From the IMG/VR virus record IMGVR_UViG_3300029186_000001: a stretch of 64,000 nt of DNA. The stretch is one strand, 5' to 3'. Positions 3,282-62,845 of this stretch are shown one piece after another (positions within the stretch are counted from its first letter, which is position 1; every line of letters starts with the position of its first letter). The position numbers and the translations under genes were made by a program. The notes under the pieces were generated by a model. That model did not search any database, was not told the origin of the DNA, and saw only the letters and a list, made by a program, of their open reading frames with translations. This DNA comes from a virus (Duplodnaviria > Heunggongvirae > Uroviricota > Caudoviricetes).

Positions 3282-3594
3282 CTAGCCCGAGACTAGGGTA
3301 TCACCTCTGGAAAGCATACGCAGAACCTTTTTTAACCCAGGGTGCCCAGCCTTTTTGCTGCTCGCCTTATTCGCAAAAATTAGCTCACATCCTGCGCTTT
3401 CAAGTGCTTTTCACTGCATAGCTGTGTTTTGTTCATTTGTCTATATGCGTACATAGCCTATTAGCATATTTTCTGCCCACTATCGTTATTTATTGCAAGC
3501 TACAGGTTTTAATTAACAAAACCAGTGTGTGTGGAAATCACAAAGTGCATACCGTTCTCAGATGTTGTTCAACTTACTGTTGTATAGGTAAAAA

Positions 3595-3858
3595 ATGACA
3601 TTTTATGTACATATCGTGATGTTATCCCTTCTTGGTGGGGTGTATTCGTATTTGAGTGGGCTATGTGAAAACCGTTACGAGTCTTCATGCAAGAAATTGC
3701 TGGCCGAATGTATTTCCGCCGTACTTGCTGGCTTTATTGGCATGTATCTCGCGGAATATAAGGATATGAATGAAAGCCTTCAGAGCTGCATGGTTCTTAT
3801 TTTCAGCGCCAATAGCAGGCTTATTATTGAAGGTTCCAAAAGTCGGTTGAATAGGTAA
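3595..3858 (+). CDS. Hypothetical small hydrophobic protein
   Basis: 87-aa ORF upstream of the holin gene; hydrophobic N-terminal half. Confidence 0.35.
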   Translation: MTFYVHIVMLSLLGGVYSYLSGLCENRYESSCKKLLAECISAVLAGFIGMYLAEYKDMNESLQSCMVLIFSANSRLIIEGSKSRLNR

Positions 3859-55029: not shown

Positions 55030-56028
55030 TTATCCGTTACCGCGCGACGGTTTCTGCGTGATAAACGTCTCAAGCATCTTTTCCGCAATTGCCGACCAGG
55101 TGTGACACTGGACCTTTTCAGCATTTTTCACGCGATCAACGCGAGCAATAACCTCATCCCAATCAATCCGCGACTTGATAACCATATGGTTCACCAACTC
55201 CAGGCGATCCGGCGGAAGGCAATCGGGCGGAGTTAATATCAACGCTCCACACATTGCCGCCTCAAGAACAGTTAATCCAAGGCTTTCGGGATGCGTAACG
55301 ATAAAAATGTCACTCTTACGCAATTCAGCTGCAAATTCGGTTGCTGGTACCGGAGTCCGTCTGTATGGGGTTACCGAAATATTCCCCGGCTCAATGGTAA
55401 CCAATCCGTCATCGGTCAGCGTTTTGGCCTCATACGGAACGGTCAGGCGCTGAAGGTTCATAAGGATACTTAAGGAGTGATCAAACCCACTAACATCAAA
55501 TGCCGCGTGGTCTACAAAAATACGCAGAACATCGTCTGTTTTGGTTTCCAGATGGAACAGCTCCTGATTCGCTGCCCATCCAACATGTTTGTTAAAACGA
55601 TTATGACGCTCTAACCTGCCGGGATTATCCAGGTACCGCCAGGTATCATCGCGGACAGTAAAAGTAATATCGACTGGTGCCGAATCCAGCATAGAACCGT
55701 CATATACCTGGGCTACCCATCCAGAGAATCGGCGACACAGTTGCATGCCTATTTCCCTGGGTACCGTAGTAAAATACCTCAATCCTGGTGCCAAAATGGC
55801 CTTCGCAGAACATGCGGTCGCAGCAGTCAACACAGCTTCAACATAATCCTCCGGGCTTTCGACGCCAGGGGAATATGGACGATGGTATTGCAATGTTACC
55901 CCTGCCTCACTAAAGGCGCAGGCCAGGTTATAAGCCCACATTTCCGTATATGTTTTCACATCACTGATGGCTGCAAATTTTCGCCCAATGATCAGGATGT
56001 TCATCGGCTTTTCCTCATTCCATTGCAT
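55030..56028 (-). CDS. Glycosyltransferase-like protein downstream of ban
   Basis: 332-aa ORF; FIVTHPESLGLTVLEAAMCGALIL resembles GT-B C-terminal motif. Confidence 0.45.
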   Translation of the reverse strand: MQWNEEKPMNILIIGRKFAAISDVKTYTEMWAYNLACAFSEAGVTLQYHRPYSPGVESPEDYVEAVLTAATACSAKAILAPGLRYFTTVPREIGMQLCRRFSGWVAQVYDGSMLDSAPVDITFTVRDDTWRYLDNPGRLERHNRFNKHVGWAANQELFHLETKTDDVLRIFVDHAAFDVSGFDHSLSILMNLQRLTVPYEAKTLTDDGLVTIEPGNISVTPYRRTPVPATEFAAELRKSDIFIVTHPESLGLTVLEAAMCGALILTPPDCLPPDRLELVNHMVIKSRIDWDEVIARVDRVKNAEKVQCHTWSAIAEKMLETFITQKPSRGNG

Positions 56029-57398
56029 TAATAATCCTCTTGCCAGTCAGCACCGGCATAGTTATCAAACCGTGAGTATTGGCCGTTAAAAGCCAATCTC
56101 ACCGTGCCAATTGGGCCATTTCGTTGCTTTCCGATAATTACCTCGGCAATGCCCTTCATTTCGCTATCCGGGTGATAAACTTCGTCGCGATACAGAAACA
56201 TAATCAGGTCTGCGTCCTGCTCAATTGCTCCTGATTCACGTAAATCTGAATTTACCGGTCGTTTGTCCGCACGCTGTTCAAGCGATCGATTAAGTTGTGA
56301 CAATGCCACCACCGGTACTTGTAATTCCTTCGCCAACGCCTTCAGTGAGCGAGAAATCTCGGCAATTTCCAGCGTTCGGTTATCTTGCAGCTCGGGGACG
56401 CGCATAAGTTGCAGGTAGTCGATCATAATCATGCTCAAACCACCATTTTCTTTATAAACACGACGAGCGCGGGAACGTAGCTCTGTCGGCGTCAGGGCGC
56501 TTGAGTCATCAATAAAAATATTCTGCTTGTCCAACAGAATACCCATTGCGCCAGAAACCCGCGCCCAATCCTCGTCGTTAAGTTGCCCTGTCCGAATACG
56601 AGTCTGATCAACGCGTGCAAGAGAAGCCAGTGAGCGCATCATCAGCTGGTGGCTCGGCATCTCAAGGCTAAAAACCAATACGGGCTTATCGTTACGAACT
56701 GCGGCATTTTCGACGAGATTCATCGCAAACGTGGTCTTCCCCATAGATGGGCGGGCGGCGACAATGATGAGATCGGACGGCTGAAGCCCTGCCGTCTTCT
56801 TATTGAGATCGGTAAATCCCGTATCAAGCCCCGTTACACCATCATGTGGTCGCTGAAACAACTCTTCTATGCGAGATACCGTTGCATCGAGAATGCTGGC
56901 GATATCTTTTGGACCACTACCGCTCTTTTGTCGTTTTTCAGCTATTTCAAAAACGCGGCGCTCGGCCATATCCAGCAATTCATTGCTGCCCCTGCCATCC
57001 TGCGCATATCCAGCTTCGGCTATTTCATTTGCGACGGAAATCATTTCACGAACAACCGCGCGTTCACGAACGATATCCGCATAAGCACAAATATTTGCCG
57101 CGCTGGGCGTGTTCTTTGACATCTCCGCAAGGTACGCAAAACCACCGGCGCGTTCTAATTTACCGTTCTGTTCAAGTGCTTCAGCAAGTGTTATCAAATC
57201 AATCGGTTTGCCATGACTTAATAACCTCTCCATCTCACTGAAAATTTCACGATGAGCACTGGTATAAAAATCATCAGCAACTATACGATCTGCAACTTCA
57301 TCCCAGCGGCAGTTATCAAGCATTAAGCCACCAAGTACAGCTTGTTCTGCACTAAGGGAATTTGGCATGGATTCAAGAGGGGATGCAGACATTAGCAC
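56028..57398 (-). CDS. ban: Replicative DNA helicase Ban (DnaB family)
   Basis: 456-aa ORF; N-terminal AEQAVLGGLMLDN and RecA-like core with GKTTFA Walker A. Confidence 0.9.
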   Translation of the reverse strand: MLMSASPLESMPNSLSAEQAVLGGLMLDNCRWDEVADRIVADDFYTSAHREIFSEMERLLSHGKPIDLITLAEALEQNGKLERAGGFAYLAEMSKNTPSAANICAYADIVRERAVVREMISVANEIAEAGYAQDGRGSNELLDMAERRVFEIAEKRQKSGSGPKDIASILDATVSRIEELFQRPHDGVTGLDTGFTDLNKKTAGLQPSDLIIVAARPSMGKTTFAMNLVENAAVRNDKPVLVFSLEMPSHQLMMRSLASLARVDQTRIRTGQLNDEDWARVSGAMGILLDKQNIFIDDSSALTPTELRSRARRVYKENGGLSMIMIDYLQLMRVPELQDNRTLEIAEISRSLKALAKELQVPVVALSQLNRSLEQRADKRPVNSDLRESGAIEQDADLIMFLYRDEVYHPDSEMKGIAEVIIGKQRNGPIGTVRLAFNGQYSRFDNYAGADWQEDY

Positions 57399-57678
57399 TC
57401 CACCCAGGCGTGCTGAATGTCAGATATAATCGGCATACTCAAATCACTCCTAACGATATGAGTCATCACCAGAAAATCAGGATTAATGCGCCGGACTCTT
57501 CCCGGCTGTCACACCGAATCGCCAGGATGGTGAATCCCTTTACCCGAGAAACAACAAACGGTGGCTTGCACATTCCGGCTACCTGGTTCGTTGCCTGAGC
57601 TAGGGGCAAGGTTCCCCCCTTTTAACGTCACCAGACCGCTAACGACGCATGTGCCAGACGCCGTGTTACAACCAAATA

Positions 57679-57754
57679 TGGTGGCCCCTACCGGACTTGA
57701 ACCGGTGACCGTGCGATTATGAGTCGCCAGCTCTAACCACTGAGCTAAAGGGCC
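57679..57754 (-). tRNA. tRNA with CAU anticodon (Met/Ile2-like, resembles ileX)
   Basis: Manual fold: 7-bp acceptor, GCTCAGTGGTTAGAGC D-arm, CTCATAA anticodon loop, GGTTCAAGTCC T-arm, CCA end. Confidence 0.8.
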
Positions 57755-57781
57755 GGATTACTGCCAATTTTGCTTACGCTT

Positions 57782-58609
57782 TTATTTCACCGGAACAAAC
57801 GGAACAGCGGTATTACTGGTCATATACTGCGGTAATGTACCGTTCCATTTGTTGATCGCTTCCAACTCCATAACACCGGGGTTCTGGCGCAGAGCTTCAC
57901 CACGTAAACGAATGGCATCAGCTTCGGCCTGGGCTTTTGTGCGAATAGCATCAGCCTGTCCGGCAGCTTCCGCGCGCAGCATGTTGGCCTCTGCTTCACG
58001 TTGTTTGACCTCTTGCTCGCGTTGCAGGGTTTTTTGGTTTGCCGTGACTTTGGCGTTAATACTGTCAATAACTGTTGGCGGGTATTCTGGCTTACCTACA
58101 TAAGAGAGGCTCATCACCTGAATGCCGATTGGCGTCATTTCTTCCTGAATGTCTTTAAGGGCTGCATCAAGCAATTCAGATTTGCCACCGTCGATAAATT
58201 TGTCGGTGGTCATTTTGCTGGCTAACCGGTTCAGAGCATCTGCAACCTTCTGGCGTAGATCGGTATCAGTAATATCATCTACACCTTTGCGATAGGTCTG
58301 AAATACCGTTGTGACTTTTGCTGGATCAACCTTGTAGGCTACGCCGATGTGGTAACCAATGGTTGTTCCGTCGCTCATCTGGAAGCTGAACGGCTCATCG
58401 TATGTCTTCATTTGCTTAAAGGTCGGGAAGATATAAACTTCAGTATTCAAGCCTGTCCAGTAGCGACCAACGCCAACTACTTCACCGATACCTTTATCAT
58501 CCCCCAGCTTATTTACTTTGATCCCTACGTTACCTGGCTCTACCCGATCGCATCCGGTCAGACATAAAGAACCCAAAATAATCGCTGCACTAATCAACGT
58601 TTTTTTCAT
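57782..58609 (-). CDS. plp: Lipoprotein with coiled-coil/Band-7-like region
   Basis: 275-aa ORF; lipobox LSLCLTGC in signal peptide. Confidence 0.6.
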   Translation of the reverse strand: MKKTLISAAIILGSLCLTGCDRVEPGNVGIKVNKLGDDKGIGEVVGVGRYWTGLNTEVYIFPTFKQMKTYDEPFSFQMSDGTTIGYHIGVAYKVDPAKVTTVFQTYRKGVDDITDTDLRQKVADALNRLASKMTTDKFIDGGKSELLDAALKDIQEEMTPIGIQVMSLSYVGKPEYPPTVIDSINAKVTANQKTLQREQEVKQREAEANMLRAEAAGQADAIRTKAQAEADAIRLRGEALRQNPGVMELEAINKWNGTLPQYMTSNTAVPFVPVK

Positions 58610-58826
58610 TAATTAATTTCCTGGTTTTTTCACGAAAAAAGACTACTGCGAAAGCCGGGTAAATGAGCGCGAGAAGGACTCCCAACAATACAAGTATTGT
58701 GCTGTTAGATGAGATCATATTTGGCAAAAGCCAAACATACAGAACCAGTGACACAATCAAACAGAGGACGGCATAAATATATAACCGCACCCATAGCGTT
58801 CGACATTTGTTCGGATTGTTCTGCAT
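58590..58826 (-). CDS. Small membrane protein
   Basis: 78-aa ORF with two hydrophobic segments overlapping plp start. Confidence 0.4.
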   Translation of the reverse strand: MQNNPNKCRTLWVRLYIYAVLCLIVSLVLYVWLLPNMISSNSTILVLLGVLLALIYPAFAVVFFREKTRKLINEKNVD

Positions 58827-59754
58827 CCTCTCACTCCATTATTTAACGAATAAAAAAGCTGCGGTGCCGGGTGCCTCCCGGTGTCCTTTGGCTGGTTATC
58901 CACCGTGGACGGGGAAACAAGGAGAAATGAATGGACTGATATAACCATTTCCCCGCGTGCGCTTAGCCGCATTCACCGCAACGGAAAGAGCATTCTTGGT
59001 GGACCTGTAGATTGGGATATGAACCCGTTACAGGAGAATGCTCTTACCTGTTACGTGCTCCGTTTCGTGGAGCTAACGGCGGGTGATCGGGCCGCACCAG
59101 GCTGGACTTATTTCAGCGTTATGCTCATGCCAGAGAATCAAACTGTGATGGTCGGTGCTGAACTCCGACACAGGGTTGTAGCAAGCCCCGCAAAGCGCGC
59201 ACTACTGTAGTTGCGGCACATCAGCCTGTGCATTCACCACAATGTTGATAACACTGGTTGTCACGCTGCAACGCAACATTTATTCGTAGATTGGGATATG
59301 ACCCCGTTACGCCAGTGTTCTCAACGTTGTAGTGCCGGTTACGGTTCCGGCCAGGCCTCTTCCTCAACGGGGTGTTCTCCATACGGACTACCGTTTATTG
59401 GTCGTTCCTGCGGTTTATGTTGTGAAGCCAGATGCTTATCTTCTGGTTGCTTCAAAGAGCTGCACTTCATCACAACGGTAAGAGCACTCGATGCATTTAA
59501 GCCAAGCCCCATAAGGGAGAATGCCCTTACCTGTTGTGTTGTGATGACCGGTGCTGATCTCCGGCTTGCGGTTATTTCAGACTCTCACGGGCGTTTAATT
59601 GCCCCGCCGAACAGCTCTTTTCCGCAATAGCTGCAATGTCTTTCGCGCATCAGCCTGCGCATTCATCACAACGGTAAGGGTACTTTGTAGGGATTCGAAC
59701 CCTCTGCCAAGCTCGGCGATCTCCGACGTCGCAAAATACCCTTACCTGTTGTGC

Positions 59755-59830
59755 TGGTGCCGATTAACGGACTCGAACCGCTGACATCCTGCTTACAAGG
59801 CAGGCGCTCTACCAACTGAGCTAAACCGGC
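59755..59830 (-). tRNA. tRNA-Thr (UGU)
   Basis: Manual fold: GCCGGTT acceptor, CTTGTAA anticodon loop, GGTTCGAGTCC T-arm, CCA end. Confidence 0.8.
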
Positions 59831-59832
59831 AT

Positions 59833-59908
59833 TGGCGATGGTGGATGGATTTGAACCATCGACCCGTTGATTAACAGTCAACCGCTCTAACCGCTGAGCT
59901 ACACCATC
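59833..59908 (-). tRNA. tRNA-Asn (GUU)
   Basis: Manual fold: GATGGTG acceptor, CTGTTAA anticodon loop, GGTTCAAATCC T-arm, CCA end. Confidence 0.8.
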
Positions 59909-60562
59909 ACTTGCCGGGTACGTCTCCGGCGAGGGCTTCCACCTCCGTATGCTTTTCGGCGCACCGCGCCCTGGCTGCAATTCGGTAACAGGGGATGCAT
60001 AACCCTGGCTTCCAGCGTGATTAGCGCCTTCAGCATGACGGGATATACCCGTAAATTCGTGGAACTGTACCCAAAGTGCTGTTAAGCACCGCTGTTACGC
60101 TGAAAAGAAGACGCAACAGGAAAGGACGCTGACCAACAGATGGCCCCTTCTCGTTCATCTGGTTAATCACACCAGCGCCCTTACCTGTTGTGCCTCCCCG
60201 TTCCCTAATACACAGACGGGGACACTCTGCGGTCGATTTTTTGACGGGGGACGACTCATACCCCGTGGCGTCTGGCTTCTTAGGCCGCTACCATCATCAG
60301 ATCATCGTTTGCATTTACTTTAATGGTCAGTTTCTAAACCGCCGCAAAGTCGCTAACCATGACGAAAACCCTGAAAAAAACGCCCACCCGAAGATGGGCA
60401 AACTGGAAGCTCGTAACGCACTTCGGCGTTGCCACTTAGGCGCATGGTCAACCTGGCAACTCGGTGGTTTGTCTGGGAGGACTAGGCCCAGCCATGCTTA
60501 CCGCCGCGCCTGTCGCGGCTAACAGCTAAATCGCTCTATAAATCACGATTCATTGAGGCGAT

Positions 60563-60590
60563 ATTACACTAATAAATTTATTAGAGCAAT
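60563..60590. promoter_or_regulatory. Overlapping pair of C1 operator-like 17-mers (bipartite palindromic)
   Basis: attacactaataaattt overlapping aaatttattagagcaat. Confidence 0.55.
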
Positions 60591-62845
60591 ACAGCCAAAA
60601 CGTCATGAGCTACACCTCGAGTGTCCCCCTTACAAGACACAGAACGTCTGGCAAAAAGAGGTTCCACTCTGAAGCCACTGTCATGATAAAGCTCTCTGAT
60701 GTTTGGCGCGCCACTGTTAGTAATGAGAACCTTTGCACCTCGACGATGAGCATCCGTCAACAGAGACACCAGGCGTTTTTGCTCTTCAAACTTAAAGTCA
60801 TGACCGGAATAGTTCGTGAATCCCTCTGTATTTGGAAGCGGTTCATACGGCGGATCGCAAAAGATGACATCTCCTTCTCCGGCAGCTTCAATCACCGCTG
60901 CAAAATCACCGCATACAAACTCAGACCGCCCTTCCGCACCGAGGAAGGCTTCCATCTCCTGTAATGGGAAATACGGAGTTTTATACTTCCCGTAACCGAC
61001 ATTGAACTCACCGGCCTGGTTGTAACGCGTCAATCCGTTAAAACAATGTCGGTTCAGGAACAAAAACGCCGCTGCGCGATGTAAATCATCATAGACTTGT
61101 TTGTTAAACGCATTCCGTACTGCCAGGTATCCTTCCTGTGTGTTGTAGTCCTGGAAGAAACGATGCGCCAGTGTGATAAGTGAATGCGCCTCGCGTTGCA
61201 GAGTCTTGTAAAAGTTAATCAGGTCAGCATTCACATCATTTAGCAGATTTTCCTGGTATCCGGCATTCGTGAAGACAGCTCCGCCACCGACAAAAGGTTC
61301 GATCAGGCGCTTCCCTTCTGGCAAATAGCGAAAGATTTGTTCCAGAACACCAAATTTTCCACCAGCCCATTTGAATATGGACCGTTCGAATTCTGCCGCT
61401 GGTTTAACTTTTCGCTCTTTTGTTTCACTTCCTTCTTTCTGCCGACATACGGCCTTAGTAATCCGATCGCCAATCCAGCGCATTACTGGTATTGCCATAC
61501 TATTGCCGATCGCTTTGTAACGCGGTCCGTCAGCTGCAAGCATCGCGGCCTCTTCTTCGCTTAAATCTGGATAGTGATTGCGAAGATATGCCAGTTCATC
61601 TGAATTAACTTTTTTACGCTTTTCCGTCGGGATCAACGTATGCCCATCAGGAAAACCTTGCAGCCTTTCACATTCGACAGGGGTAAGACGGCGGACAGCT
61701 ACTTCTGCGTTTCTTACTTCATAGCAAACAGCTGTTGGATTTTTAGCCATTAGAGATGGTGAAGTATTCTTAGTTGCAGCATGTTGTGTACCGCTCATAC
61801 GCTCAGGAAAAGCCAATGTAACAAGATGCTCATGGCTTTCTTGCTCACGTGCCCGCAATGTACCATGCCCTTCTGACCAAAAACCTGCTCCTGTGCTGCT
61901 AAAAACGGCAAGGTCAGTGGCATCTTTAAAATCTCTTGCCTTTACTGTCGATGCGGTTTCATCGTCAATATATTCCCCAAATGCTGCCATCCTGAAAGCG
62001 TTTACGGCTTTCGTCGATTTCATACCGGGTGGCATGTCAGCGTGTAGGCATGGATTTAGGCTTTCGCCACTGATTGCAGCGCCATTTGCAATAATGGCGG
62101 AAGCGATTTCCTTCTTTTTTCGGCTCGGCGCAATATTCCGACGCACGCCTTCGAACTCAAAAAGTACCGTTGCGGGATCGAGGTCTGTTCGAGCACTTGC
62201 GACAACAAACACGCGTCGGCGTCGTTGTGCCACTCCGAAGTATTGGGCATCAAGGATTCTCCAGGCCACCTTTCGCTGCGGTCCATAAATACAACCACAC
62301 TGCGGCCACTTTGGAGCATGGCAACCGGTTTTGCCATCCCACCGCCAGAACGCGTTACTTTTTCCTGATTCAGGTCGATCACCTGGTTCAAATGGCGCAT
62401 CTTCTCCAGCCAATCCGGCAAGGAAACATCCGAAGGCGTTATCTGCCGATGACAGGACTCCTGGGACATTTTCCCAGACGATAACTGTCGGTTTGAGGAA
62501 GGACTCAGACCGTTTGTCGTCAATTGCATTTGCAAGCTCCACATACTTCAAAGTTAGCGCGCCGCGTTCATCATCAAGCCCACCACGTAAGCCCGCGATA
62601 CTGAATGCCTGACAAGGCGTACCCCCGACGAGCACATCAGGGGATTCGATTTCCCCAGCCAGGACTTTTTTGGCAAGTTTTGTCATGTCGCCAAGGTTGG
62701 CGACATGGGGCCAGCGGTGCGCAAGAACGGCAGATGGAAAAGGCTCGATTTCAGCAAACCACGCCGGACGCATACCCAACGGTTCCCAGGCAATACTCGC
62801 GGCTTCAATTCCACTGCAAACAGATCCATAGCACAGCTCTTTCAC
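60581..62845 (-). CDS. dmt: Bifunctional DNA methyltransferase Dmt (N6-adenine plus C5-cytosine domains)
   Basis: 754-aa ORF; N-terminal [16 protein letters not shown] (C5-MTase motif I-like) and C-terminal DPPY-type region FCDPPYEP. Confidence 0.8.

Follow-up and report, generated by a model that had tools for sequence, protein, structure and literature searches.

A family of RNA hairpins, encoded on the minus strand and set among tRNA genes, was found in the untranslated leader of the ban operon of a P1-like phage. The DNA analyzed, a 64,000-nucleotide (nt) stretch referred to here as the window (IMG/VR record IMGVR_UViG_3300029186_000001), was recognized as a P1-like phage by sequence comparison; its positions 58800-60300 are 99.8% identical to Escherichia phage vB_EcoM-813R1, 99.5% identical to RCS47, and 98.7% identical to P1 across 85% of the length. 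These elements, which we call A hairpins, are very probably selected RNA cassettes in a polycistronic noncoding array that also contains tRNA-shaped cloverleaves (B elements). Along the minus strand the order of the array is a tag-encoding module resembling transfer-messenger RNA (tmRNA), hairpin A5, tRNA-Asn, tRNA-Thr, A4, B, A3, B', A2, B, A1, and an element like the small RNA (sRNA) STnc100. The hairpins and the two tRNAs are as follows.

58972-59055, minus strand: hairpin A1, with arms CGUAAC-A-GGUAAGAGCAUU and AAUGCUCUUUCC-GUUGCG and a cargo carrying GGGUUCAUAUCCCAAUCUAC; -37.1 kcal/mol, z -4.5
59235-59334, minus strand: hairpin A2, with divergent arms and the second motif GGGGUCAUAUCCCAAUCUAC in its cargo; -45.0 kcal/mol, z -4.9
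59466-59538, minus strand: hairpin A3, with cargo CUCCCUUAUGGGGCUUGGCUUAAAUGCAUCGAG; -34.5 kcal/mol, z -4.4
59662-59754, minus strand: hairpin A4, with a D-like hairpin and T-arm-like AGGGUUCGAAUCCCU as cargo; -43.0 kcal/mol, z -4.5
60105-60200, minus strand: hairpin A5, with arms at 60113-60191; -48.5 kcal/mol, z -5.9
59755-59830, minus strand: tRNA-Thr(TGT), found by ARAGORN and Rfam, 72.9 bits
59833-59908, minus strand: tRNA-Asn(GTT), found by ARAGORN and Rfam, 74.5 bits

The z-scores (-4.4 to -5.9) are relative to dinucleotide shuffles, and the plus-strand folds of A1 to A5 (-32.7, -40.1, -25.6, -37.1, and -33.6 kcal/mol) are all weaker than those of the minus strand, by 4.4 to 14.9 kcal/mol per hairpin. 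An A hairpin consists of a handle, in which a 6-bp outer stem of variable, co-varying sequence is followed by a bulged A, a near-invariant base, and a co-varying upper stem, and of the exchangeable cargo of about 30-100 nt that the handle encloses. Four of the five hairpins of the window have the near-invariant base, GGUAAG/CUU(U/A)CC with the bulged A, together with the co-varying outer and upper stems and a cargo of 30-50 nt. In all five, 18 conserved pairs and their extensions form a near-continuous duplex of about two turns, as expected of an RNase III substrate; at 18-22 bp these stems are longer than the 14-16 bp given in a first-pass annotation that had drawn attention to the repeats from the sequence alone. 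The arms of A2 (I1) are 23 nt long and 87% complementary, while those of A4 pair at 12/12 and 6/6 positions around the bulged A, with the T-arm-like AGGGUUCGAAUCCCU abutting the 3' arm. A4 starts 1 nt past the CCA of tRNA-Thr; the T-arm-like content ascribed to it earlier is present, but the hairpin lies downstream of tRNA-Thr along the direction of transcription and not upstream. The cargo of A5 has a conserved GGUGUGAUUAA loop, which closes the tag module in other phages.

The repeated motifs that the first-pass annotation had listed were all located. Copies of (c)ccttacctgttgtg are at 59040-59055, 59523-59538, 59738-59753, and 60177-60192, its partner is at 59466-59488 and 59662-59684 with a further copy at 58972-58994, and the second motif, the inner part common to A1 and A2, is at 59007-59031 and 59286-59310 (96% identity). 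The 15-mer CACAACAGGTAAGGG has five matches with up to three mismatches (1.09 expected; 1 of 100 shuffles reached 5), and the 17-mer partner CTTACCGTTGTGATGAA has three (0.13 expected; no shuffle reached 3). Hairpin repeats are therefore present as claimed, but they number five rather than three or four: the copy at 60177-60192 pairs with 60113-60131, and 59235-59257 and 59312-59334 form a divergent extra hairpin. No further copy was found in the 64-kb window outside 58977-60200.

Stem evolution was followed in 122 hairpins with 71 distinct stems, drawn from all phage loci fetched with a finder that demanded at least 11/12 and at least 5/6 pairs. The GGUAAG/CUU(U/A)CC base and its bulged A are nearly invariant in this set. 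The outer six pairs vary, e.g., CACAAC/GUUGUG, ACUAUC/GAUAGU, and GAAAUC/AGUUUU. In the upper stem a change on one strand is matched on the other, as in GAGCAUU/AGUGCUC, GGGUAUU/AGUACCC, and GCUGCUU/AGGCAGC, and these compensatory changes show that the stem remains under selection. There are 122 G-U pairs but only 25 A-C pairs, and this bias, together with the folding energies, places the structure on the tRNA strand. In 39 distinct stems, pair counting gave both-side changes at 11/18 pairs and a covariation score of 0.402 versus 0.153 in shuffles, a value that 0/500 shuffles reached, with slid registers at 0.12 or below. The repeats are RNA hairpins on the minus strand, and the structured-RNA, tRNA-like reading of the first-pass annotation is borne out by the stem covariation and the G-U strand bias; the contrary outcome that it had envisaged, relatives without the repeats and without conserved structure, clearly does not hold, both being present in relatives.

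The hairpins belong to no RNA family that we searched. ARAGORN and RF00005 recognized three known tRNAs only and left the hairpins, A4 included, without a match at E<=10, while Rfam at E<=10 over 56000-62000 gave the hairpins chance-level miRNA matches only. For YrlA (RF02553), the lone weak match (25.6 bits; gathering score, 69) covers two true tRNAs and none of the hairpins. A long terminal stem with T-arm/D-arm mimicry is common to YrlA/Y RNA, A4, and an element of phage Moogle described below (1799-1870), but the long stem of A4 stacks on the T arm like an acceptor stem and not like an anticodon stem; E. coli is not known to have Rsr.

Hairpin cargo is exchanged among phages. Over all loci its length ranges from 15 to ~200 nt (median, 50), and a T-loop-like hairpin occurs in 11/124 cargos, most of the others being without any tRNA feature. 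The next element 3' of the hairpin is a B element in 42/124 cases and a tag module in 19, and the element before it is a tag module in 36 and a tRNA-type T arm in 17. From the CCA of tRNA-Thr or tRNA-Ser to the hairpin the gap is 0-2 nt in 49/50 cases, mostly from P1-like phages and hence not independent; in Moogle, 3 nt lie between the hairpin end and tRNA-Arg. The 3' outer arm (GUUGUG) of each A hairpin shares nucleotides with the closing stem of the next B element, on the 5' strand of that stem. At the site just after tRNA-Thr, identical arms enclose a T-arm cargo in P1 and the A3 cargo in P7 and Ro157; the window carries both cargos there, with a lambdoid B element between them. The A3 cargo is found, besides P7 and Ro157, in a Klebsiella lambdoid phage and in Felix-O1-like phages. 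One other cargo family is 88-98% identical among P22-like, lambdoid, T1-like, and N4-size phages; it occurs in HK620 and HK633, in T1-like and Klebsiella phages, and in a Salmonella phage of 72 kb, and BLAST returned no coding-gene match for it. Captured gene fragments were considered as a source of cargo, one cargo having resembled the start of a helix-turn-helix protein, and were rejected when BLAST gave other hairpin copies only and no gene. The tRNAs also appear to act as cassettes beside the hairpins because tRNA content differs among P1-like relatives (L003, L004, L005, L007): Ro157 and CMS-2020a have a tRNA-Tyr between the Asn and Thr tRNAs, and the arrays of D6, P7, and CMS-2020a have a tRNA-Ser(TGA).

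The B elements and their relatives in the window are the following.

59538-59672, minus strand: B element, a tRNA-shaped cloverleaf with a 9-bp closing stem, 5' hairpin GCGCAGGCUGAUGCGC, variable arm, and 3' hairpin GCCGGAGAUCAGCACCGGU
59142-59243, minus strand: second copy of the B element, by pattern and closing-stem test (repeats D3, D7)
59419-59476, minus strand: short stem GUUGUGAUGAAG...CUUCACAAC, a reduced B-like element, by sequence reading (repeat D5)
58851-58980, minus strand: STnc100-like B-type element ending in a U tract, the last RNA module before the first open reading frame (ORF); -52.2 kcal/mol, z -3.5

The 137-nt spacer at 59538-59672 folds into a four-way cloverleaf with a long variable arm, its 3' hairpin abutting the closing stem. 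Lambdoid phages and prophages have a segment 96-98.5% identical to it, which in mEp460 lies just downstream of pL; P1 itself lacks the element. The loops of the two B hairpins are complementary (GCUGAU/AUCAGC), and among 23 distinct copies in other loci two variants alter both loops jointly (ACUGAU/AUCAGU and GUCGA/UCGAC), which suggests a Watson-Crick "elbow" that mimics the D-loop/T-loop contact of tRNA. An aminoacylatable B domain was considered and rejected: the acceptor pairs are all Watson-Crick and the tail is AAC instead of CCA. The element at 58860-58980 scores under the gathering score of STnc100 (RF02076; 37.8 versus 47 bits; E 1.1e-5) and covers model positions 31-147 only, while its homologue in Klebsiella phage K751 matches the full model at 48.8 bits, above that score; the A hairpins have no RF02076 match. 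We place the B elements in the expressed STnc100/PasD sRNA family. STnc100 and PasD are expressed prophage sRNAs, and PasD was found Hfq-bound (bioRxiv 10.64898/2026.05.13.724894; PMC12370729). Their fold, in which a long-range stem closes off a 5' hairpin, a middle part that varies, and a 3' hairpin, is that of the B elements and of 58851-58980, and all of them are located in phage leader regions near Q, pL, or tRNAs. The family differs from the array in that the window copy falls below the gathering threshold and the A hairpins stand outside it, and the parts of the two papers that were consulted make no mention of an alternating A/B array or of loop-loop pairing.

The array opens with a module that encodes a peptide tag.

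60195-60372, minus strand: tmRNA-like module, opening with GUUUUCG; resume codon GCA at 60312-60310, tag and stop at 60312-60280, pseudoknot at ~60267-60231

It reads ...AAAGUAAAU GCA AAC GAU GAU CUG AUG AUG GUA GCG GCC UAA (ANDDLMMVAA*), and thus runs, as a tmRNA tag frame does, from a resume codon to hydrophobic-Ala-Ala and a stop. The SsrA tag of E. coli is ANDENYALAA. In a pattern scan of viral contigs the ten-codon frame was kept in 127/127 loci, with other frames differing in length; there are 15 tag peptide variants, including ANDDVVLMAA, ANEEMYLAVA, and ANDEQFLAVA, the last Ala codon takes all four GCN synonyms, and both UAA and UAG serve as stops. In most variants the stop codon sits in the loop of a hairpin whose stem contains the last tag codons, and 3' of the tag the loop of the next hairpin forms a pseudoknot with a downstream segment through co-varying pairs (CCGA/UCGG, CCAG/CUGG, CCAA/UUGG, and GUCG/CGAC). 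These helices were read by eye from the alignment because RNAalifold gave almost no consensus structure for the module; on the upstream side of the tag no counterpart of PK1 was made out. The module is collinear with positions 53-125 of E. coli ssrA and shares with tmRNA (SsrA and its permuted two-piece form) the resume GCA after ..AUAAAU, a 10-residue AND...AA-type tag, the stop in a hairpin, the downstream pseudoknot, and a GGUUUCGAC-like motif upstream. It differs in that no alanine-type tRNA-like domain was found in the window, in being embedded among hairpin cassettes, and in going unrecognized by ARAGORN or by Rfam at threshold. The gathering scores of the Rfam tmRNA clan were not reached (in the window, tmRNA_permuted gave 24.1 bits against 47 and beta_tmRNA 14.1 against 84; the best score anywhere was 39), and ARAGORN in tmRNA mode, run on the window and 134 loci, made two calls only, in Moogle (true tag, permuted) and in swi2 (spurious). 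In the P1 record (NC_005856) the module lies, unannotated, at about 68887-69070, directly downstream of the "dicF-like region".

A tRNA-like partner for the module was sought nearby. Beside the module in P1-like, lambdoid, P22-like, and T1-like arrays, that of the window included, no G3-U70 acceptor with CCA was found, and between -1500 and +2500 of the module in the 127 loci no T arm with a CCA end recurs; the pieces that do occur are lineage-specific and confined to Ackermannviridae, Felix-O1-like phages, and one type of 44-kb viral contig. The piece in Felix-O1-like phages is a T arm with GCCA that lacks G3-U70. In Moogle, a member of this group, ARAGORN reports a permuted tmRNA carrying exactly ANDDLMMVAA, and its genome announcement reports a tmRNA/"ssrA" call (PMC4319497); a 2014 survey of tmRNA genes lists none in enterobacterial phages (PMC4131195). 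The 5' tRNA domain in this call is part of a real tRNA-Lys, and the permuted form of the call is due to a circularly permuted tRNA-like piece. That element (Moogle L133, 1799-1870; L009, 1310-1370) consists of a T arm, an acceptor-like stem with a short loop, and a D arm, the acceptor-like stem being ACCCUUC-GCCAAACA-GAAGGGU in Moogle and ACACG-UUACGG-CGUGU in ESh22. In swi2 (L010, 1911-2285) the 3' acceptor strand of the downstream tRNA-Met (CGUGUCC-A-CCA) has a potential partner in a GGGCACA that closely follows the GUGUGAUUAAUAA hairpin; the pairing would make a G3-U70 and was used, with the 3' half of tRNA-Met, in the wrong-tag call of ARAGORN, and it may be a coincidence.

Array modules are widespread. 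An A/B query matches 153 GenBank phage records and a tag-module query at least 333, and the phages include P1-like, lambdoid, P22-like (HK620), T1-like (~47 kb), N4-size (~70 kb), Ackermannviridae, and Felix-O1-like groups, with the array regions almost always unannotated. Parts of 58860-59760 are present in 1367/5426 complete E. coli genomes, ~350 of which have most of the stretch; chromosomal matches are mostly to the B element alone. A unit of A, tag module, A, and B fills the late leader of HK620 from pR'/qut to tQ; this 650-nt leader (L132, 1596-2267), with the tag ANEEMYLAVA*, has been unannotated since 2001 and is comparable to the location of Stx-phage sRNAs. The swi2 and Moogle arrays each have a promoter of their own and are closed by a tRNA. 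In K751, ~3 kb without an annotated gene (L008, 1000-4000) consists largely of array modules. Along with the tag module and A and B elements, that stretch holds a tRNA-like element without an anticodon arm (1640-1705), a tRNA-like RNA of 131 nt whose CCA end is encoded (2556-2686), and, at 3497-3711, a full match to STnc100. The first-pass annotation, which had caught the repeats, was silent on the interleaved cloverleaf elements, the tag-encoding module, and this breadth of distribution. The A hairpin family, the A/B/tRNA grammar of the array, the exchange of cargo, and the occurrence of the tag module in many phages, P1 and HK620 among them, were found neither in Rfam 15 nor in the searchable literature, although earlier remarks on the P1 region may exist. 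The fragments already known are STnc100/PasD and the ARAGORN "ssrA" call in Felix-O1-like phages.

We see an even chance that the array yields hairpin-framed small RNAs cut from a polycistronic precursor of tRNA type, in which the stem would be a processing and stability handle. The host enzymes of tRNA maturation, RNase P, RNase E, and RNase Z/BN, would cut at the true tRNAs and B elements, and a double-strand-specific nuclease such as RNase III would possibly cut the 18-22-bp handles, so that the combined cuts would split the precursor into discrete small RNAs. The handle would set local folding, define ends (0-2 nt past the CCA of a tRNA), and protect the released RNA, while the cargo and the variable arm of the B element would be the acting part, for instance by displaying a sequence for pairing or by serving as a decoy. 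Its dense structure might also prevent Rho from loading onto the long untranslated leader and so allow ban to be expressed, and the repeated arms could serve as recombination points that shuffle cassettes among phages. Arrays lie in several transcription settings: in the C1-controlled ban operon, in the late leader of HK620, downstream of pL (mEp460), and behind a promoter of their own (swi2, Moogle).

Three precedents favor this picture. RNase III stems punctuate the early RNA of T7, rRNA operons, and the T4 tRNA cluster. They resemble the A stems as repeated, bulged or mismatched stems of ~20 bp between RNAs of one transcript and beside tRNAs; the A stems differ in enclosing long, conserved, exchangeable inserts and in having a sequence-invariant base, and their cleavage is a prediction. 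The C4 RNA of P1 is released by RNase P from a tRNA-like precursor, and murine gammaherpesvirus 68 (MHV68) has tRNA-miRNA (TMER) units. In these as in the array, tRNA-shaped elements are joined directly to hairpin RNAs in a viral noncoding transcript, and by analogy tRNA enzymes would define the ends of the hairpin RNAs. The array differs as a bacterial, multiunit system whose B elements swap the D/T-loop contact for Watson-Crick loop pairing.

Several points weigh against reading the hairpins as selected, processed cassettes. The evidence for the stems includes 94.6% paired cells in the 39 distinct stems, compared with 82.4% in shuffles, but the near-complete pairing that the finder demands inflates this percentage (the numbers of pair types are unaffected). 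Many of the loci are P1-like and hence not independent. The high identity of cargo across distant phages could reflect recent transfer rather than function. The near-invariant base, with its U-U mismatch and bulged A, is needless for a plain RNase III stalk and points to a sequence-specific, possibly host, partner. Finally, we purely infer that the precursor is processed.

The tag module raises the question of whether a phage trans-translation RNA has the hairpins and cloverleaves as its working parts, with the module supplying the coding portion of a tmRNA that is split or permuted. The A arms, some with A4-like T-arm cargo, would then dock the tag piece to a tRNA-like acceptor or to SmpB; we consider this unlikely. 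It would account for the invariable tag frame with its synonymous last Ala codons and two kinds of stop, for the stop in a hairpin followed by a co-varying pseudoknot, and for the permuted tmRNA with the exact tag in Moogle (PMC4319497). In addition, GGUUUUCG...GCGAC of the phages agrees with GGUUUCGACGGGGCG in the consensus of permuted tmRNAs, the hairpin just before GGUUUUCG occupies the place expected of the permuted acceptor hairpin, and cargo of the A4 type has the D-like and T-arm layout of the tRNA-like domain of tmRNA. However, the four array types searched have no G3-U70 acceptor with CCA near the module, T-arm cargo is confined to 11 of the 124 hairpins and the A arms lack CCA, the Rfam tmRNA models score 24-39 bits against a gathering score of 47, and the 5' tRNA domain in Moogle belongs to a real tRNA-Lys. 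That P1 and hundreds of other enterobacterial phages carry a trans-translation device not described before, composed of a tag template that lacks a conventional tRNA-like domain and a separate or unconventional tRNA-like partner, with the handles and cloverleaves as its assembly and processing framework, is likewise improbable. Decay offers another explanation, namely that the hairpins are pseudogenes of tRNAs or tmRNA, left by duplication of the tRNA cluster and without a present function of their own. The T-arm-like GGUUCGAAUCC or GGGUUCAUAUCCC in A4, A1, and A2 and the extra tRNA-Tyr or tRNA-Ser nearby in relatives would fit it, but most cargos have no tRNA feature, an 18-22-bp stem with an invariant base is foreign to tRNA, the compensatory changes speak of ongoing stem selection, and the element is retained in at least six unrelated phage groups, all of which makes decay quite unlikely.

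Action at the level of DNA, as palindromic sites of recombination or cassette exchange (attC-, REP-, or MITE-like) or as protein-binding sites with incidental transcription, is distinctly improbable as well. Modules are gained, lost, and swapped exactly at the arms, and the repeats are in direct orientation at a spacing of 196-261 bp; integron attC sites and REP/ERIC elements are likewise imperfect palindromes that have a bulged base and flank inserts of variable content, which genomes exchange in the manner of cassettes. Yet the excess of G-U over A-C pairs is a strand-specific RNA signature, and all copies lie in the tRNA orientation within one transcription unit, with none elsewhere in the 64 kb. 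The GUUGUG outer arm misfits the attC core GTTRRRY: where integrons have RYYYAAC/GTTRRRY cores and IntI, the outer arms (CACAAC/GUUGUG) vary and co-vary, and no integron integrase or transposase gene was seen in the annotation on either side of the arrays of P1, P7, HK620, and Moogle, which was not searched systematically. The repeats might instead be codon-level repeats in genes for the Upl and Plp proteins on the plus strand, a reading that we find hardly credible. It starts from open frames of 109 and 139 amino acids (aa) that correspond to P1 upl and plp and are annotated in P1 and RCS47. Neither frame has a Pfam match, identity to P1 Plp extends only as far as residue 93, at a change in module content, the plp start differs in P7, and P1 plp overlaps trnT in antisense. 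The RefSeq Prokaryotic Genome Annotation Pipeline (PGAP) places no coding sequence over the array in the P1-like plasmids listed, only tRNA genes. No conserved frame, start, or end and no family match thus argues for a protein, while the conserved RNA structure is on the opposite strand. These ORFs are very probably artefacts of a GC-rich structured region, as the first-pass annotation had said of the Cys-rich ORFs called there, which lack Pfam matches, have shifting starts and ends, and are not called by PGAP.

The array is flanked by the following features.

60581-62845, minus strand: dmt
60561-60596, minus strand: C1 operator/Pban region and start of the ban-operon leader, overlapping the 3' end of dmt; ATTGCTCTAATAAATTT palindrome (I2), assigned from the P1 and P7 records
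60364-60465, minus strand: "dicF-like region" (label of the P1 record), by coordinate mapping to NC_005856
58860-60560, minus strand: leader stretch of ~1.7 kb without credible ORFs
58590-58826, minus strand: membrane ORF, 78 aa
57782-58609, minus strand: SPFH/Band-7 lipoprotein, 275 aa (Pfam PF01145, E 1e-30)
57679-57754, minus strand: tRNA-Met(CAT), P1 trnI
56028-57398, minus strand: ban

After the array, the minus strand thus runs through the first ORFs and trnI to ban, and 58860-60560 is the untranslated leader of the C1-repressed ban operon. The homologous records of P1 and P7 annotate a bivalent C1 operator and Pban at the site matching 60561-60596, and a note in the P7 record states that a C1-controlled promoter governs the tRNAs; because these records put the promoter just upstream, the array forms an early, repressor-controlled minus-strand leader. 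The tciA-tciB-tciC genes that lie between the array and trnI in P1 are replaced in the window by the 78-aa membrane ORF and the SPFH lipoprotein (57782-58826), in agreement with the earlier remark that convincing tci-type genes are missing; Ro157c2YLVW has the same arrangement. The "dicF-like region" is closed by a strong terminator-like hairpin found in a terminator scan (60381-60403; GCCCAUCUUCGGGUGGGC followed by U7), which lies right after Pban and just before the tag module. The region has no match to the Rfam DicF model at E<=10; it might act as an attenuator for the ban operon or give rise to a small RNA of its own. On the minus strand, 59335-59470 is 100% identical across the window, P1, and P7, differs at two positions in Ro157, and carries no assigned RNA structure; a 57-aa ORF at 59339-59512, also on the minus strand, starts within the A3 cargo and lacks a Shine-Dalgarno sequence.

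In P1, a textbook phage, the ~1.7 kb of the ban-operon leader is still annotated with just two doubtful ORFs and a "dicF-like" stretch. With the present analysis this stretch becomes a defined set of RNA modules common to temperate and virulent enterobacterial phages, and the orphan sRNAs STnc100 and PasD find a place in a wider grammar that combines hairpin cassettes with tRNA-shaped scaffolds and tRNAs. Since the arrays adjoin phage tRNA genes, now discussed as counter-defense cargo, the hairpin cargos are candidates for a role in the host-phage arms race. The analysis also exposes a conserved SsrA-tag template in phage arrays, and a trans-translation device built on it, if real, could let the phage rescue or re-tag stalled ribosomes during infection.

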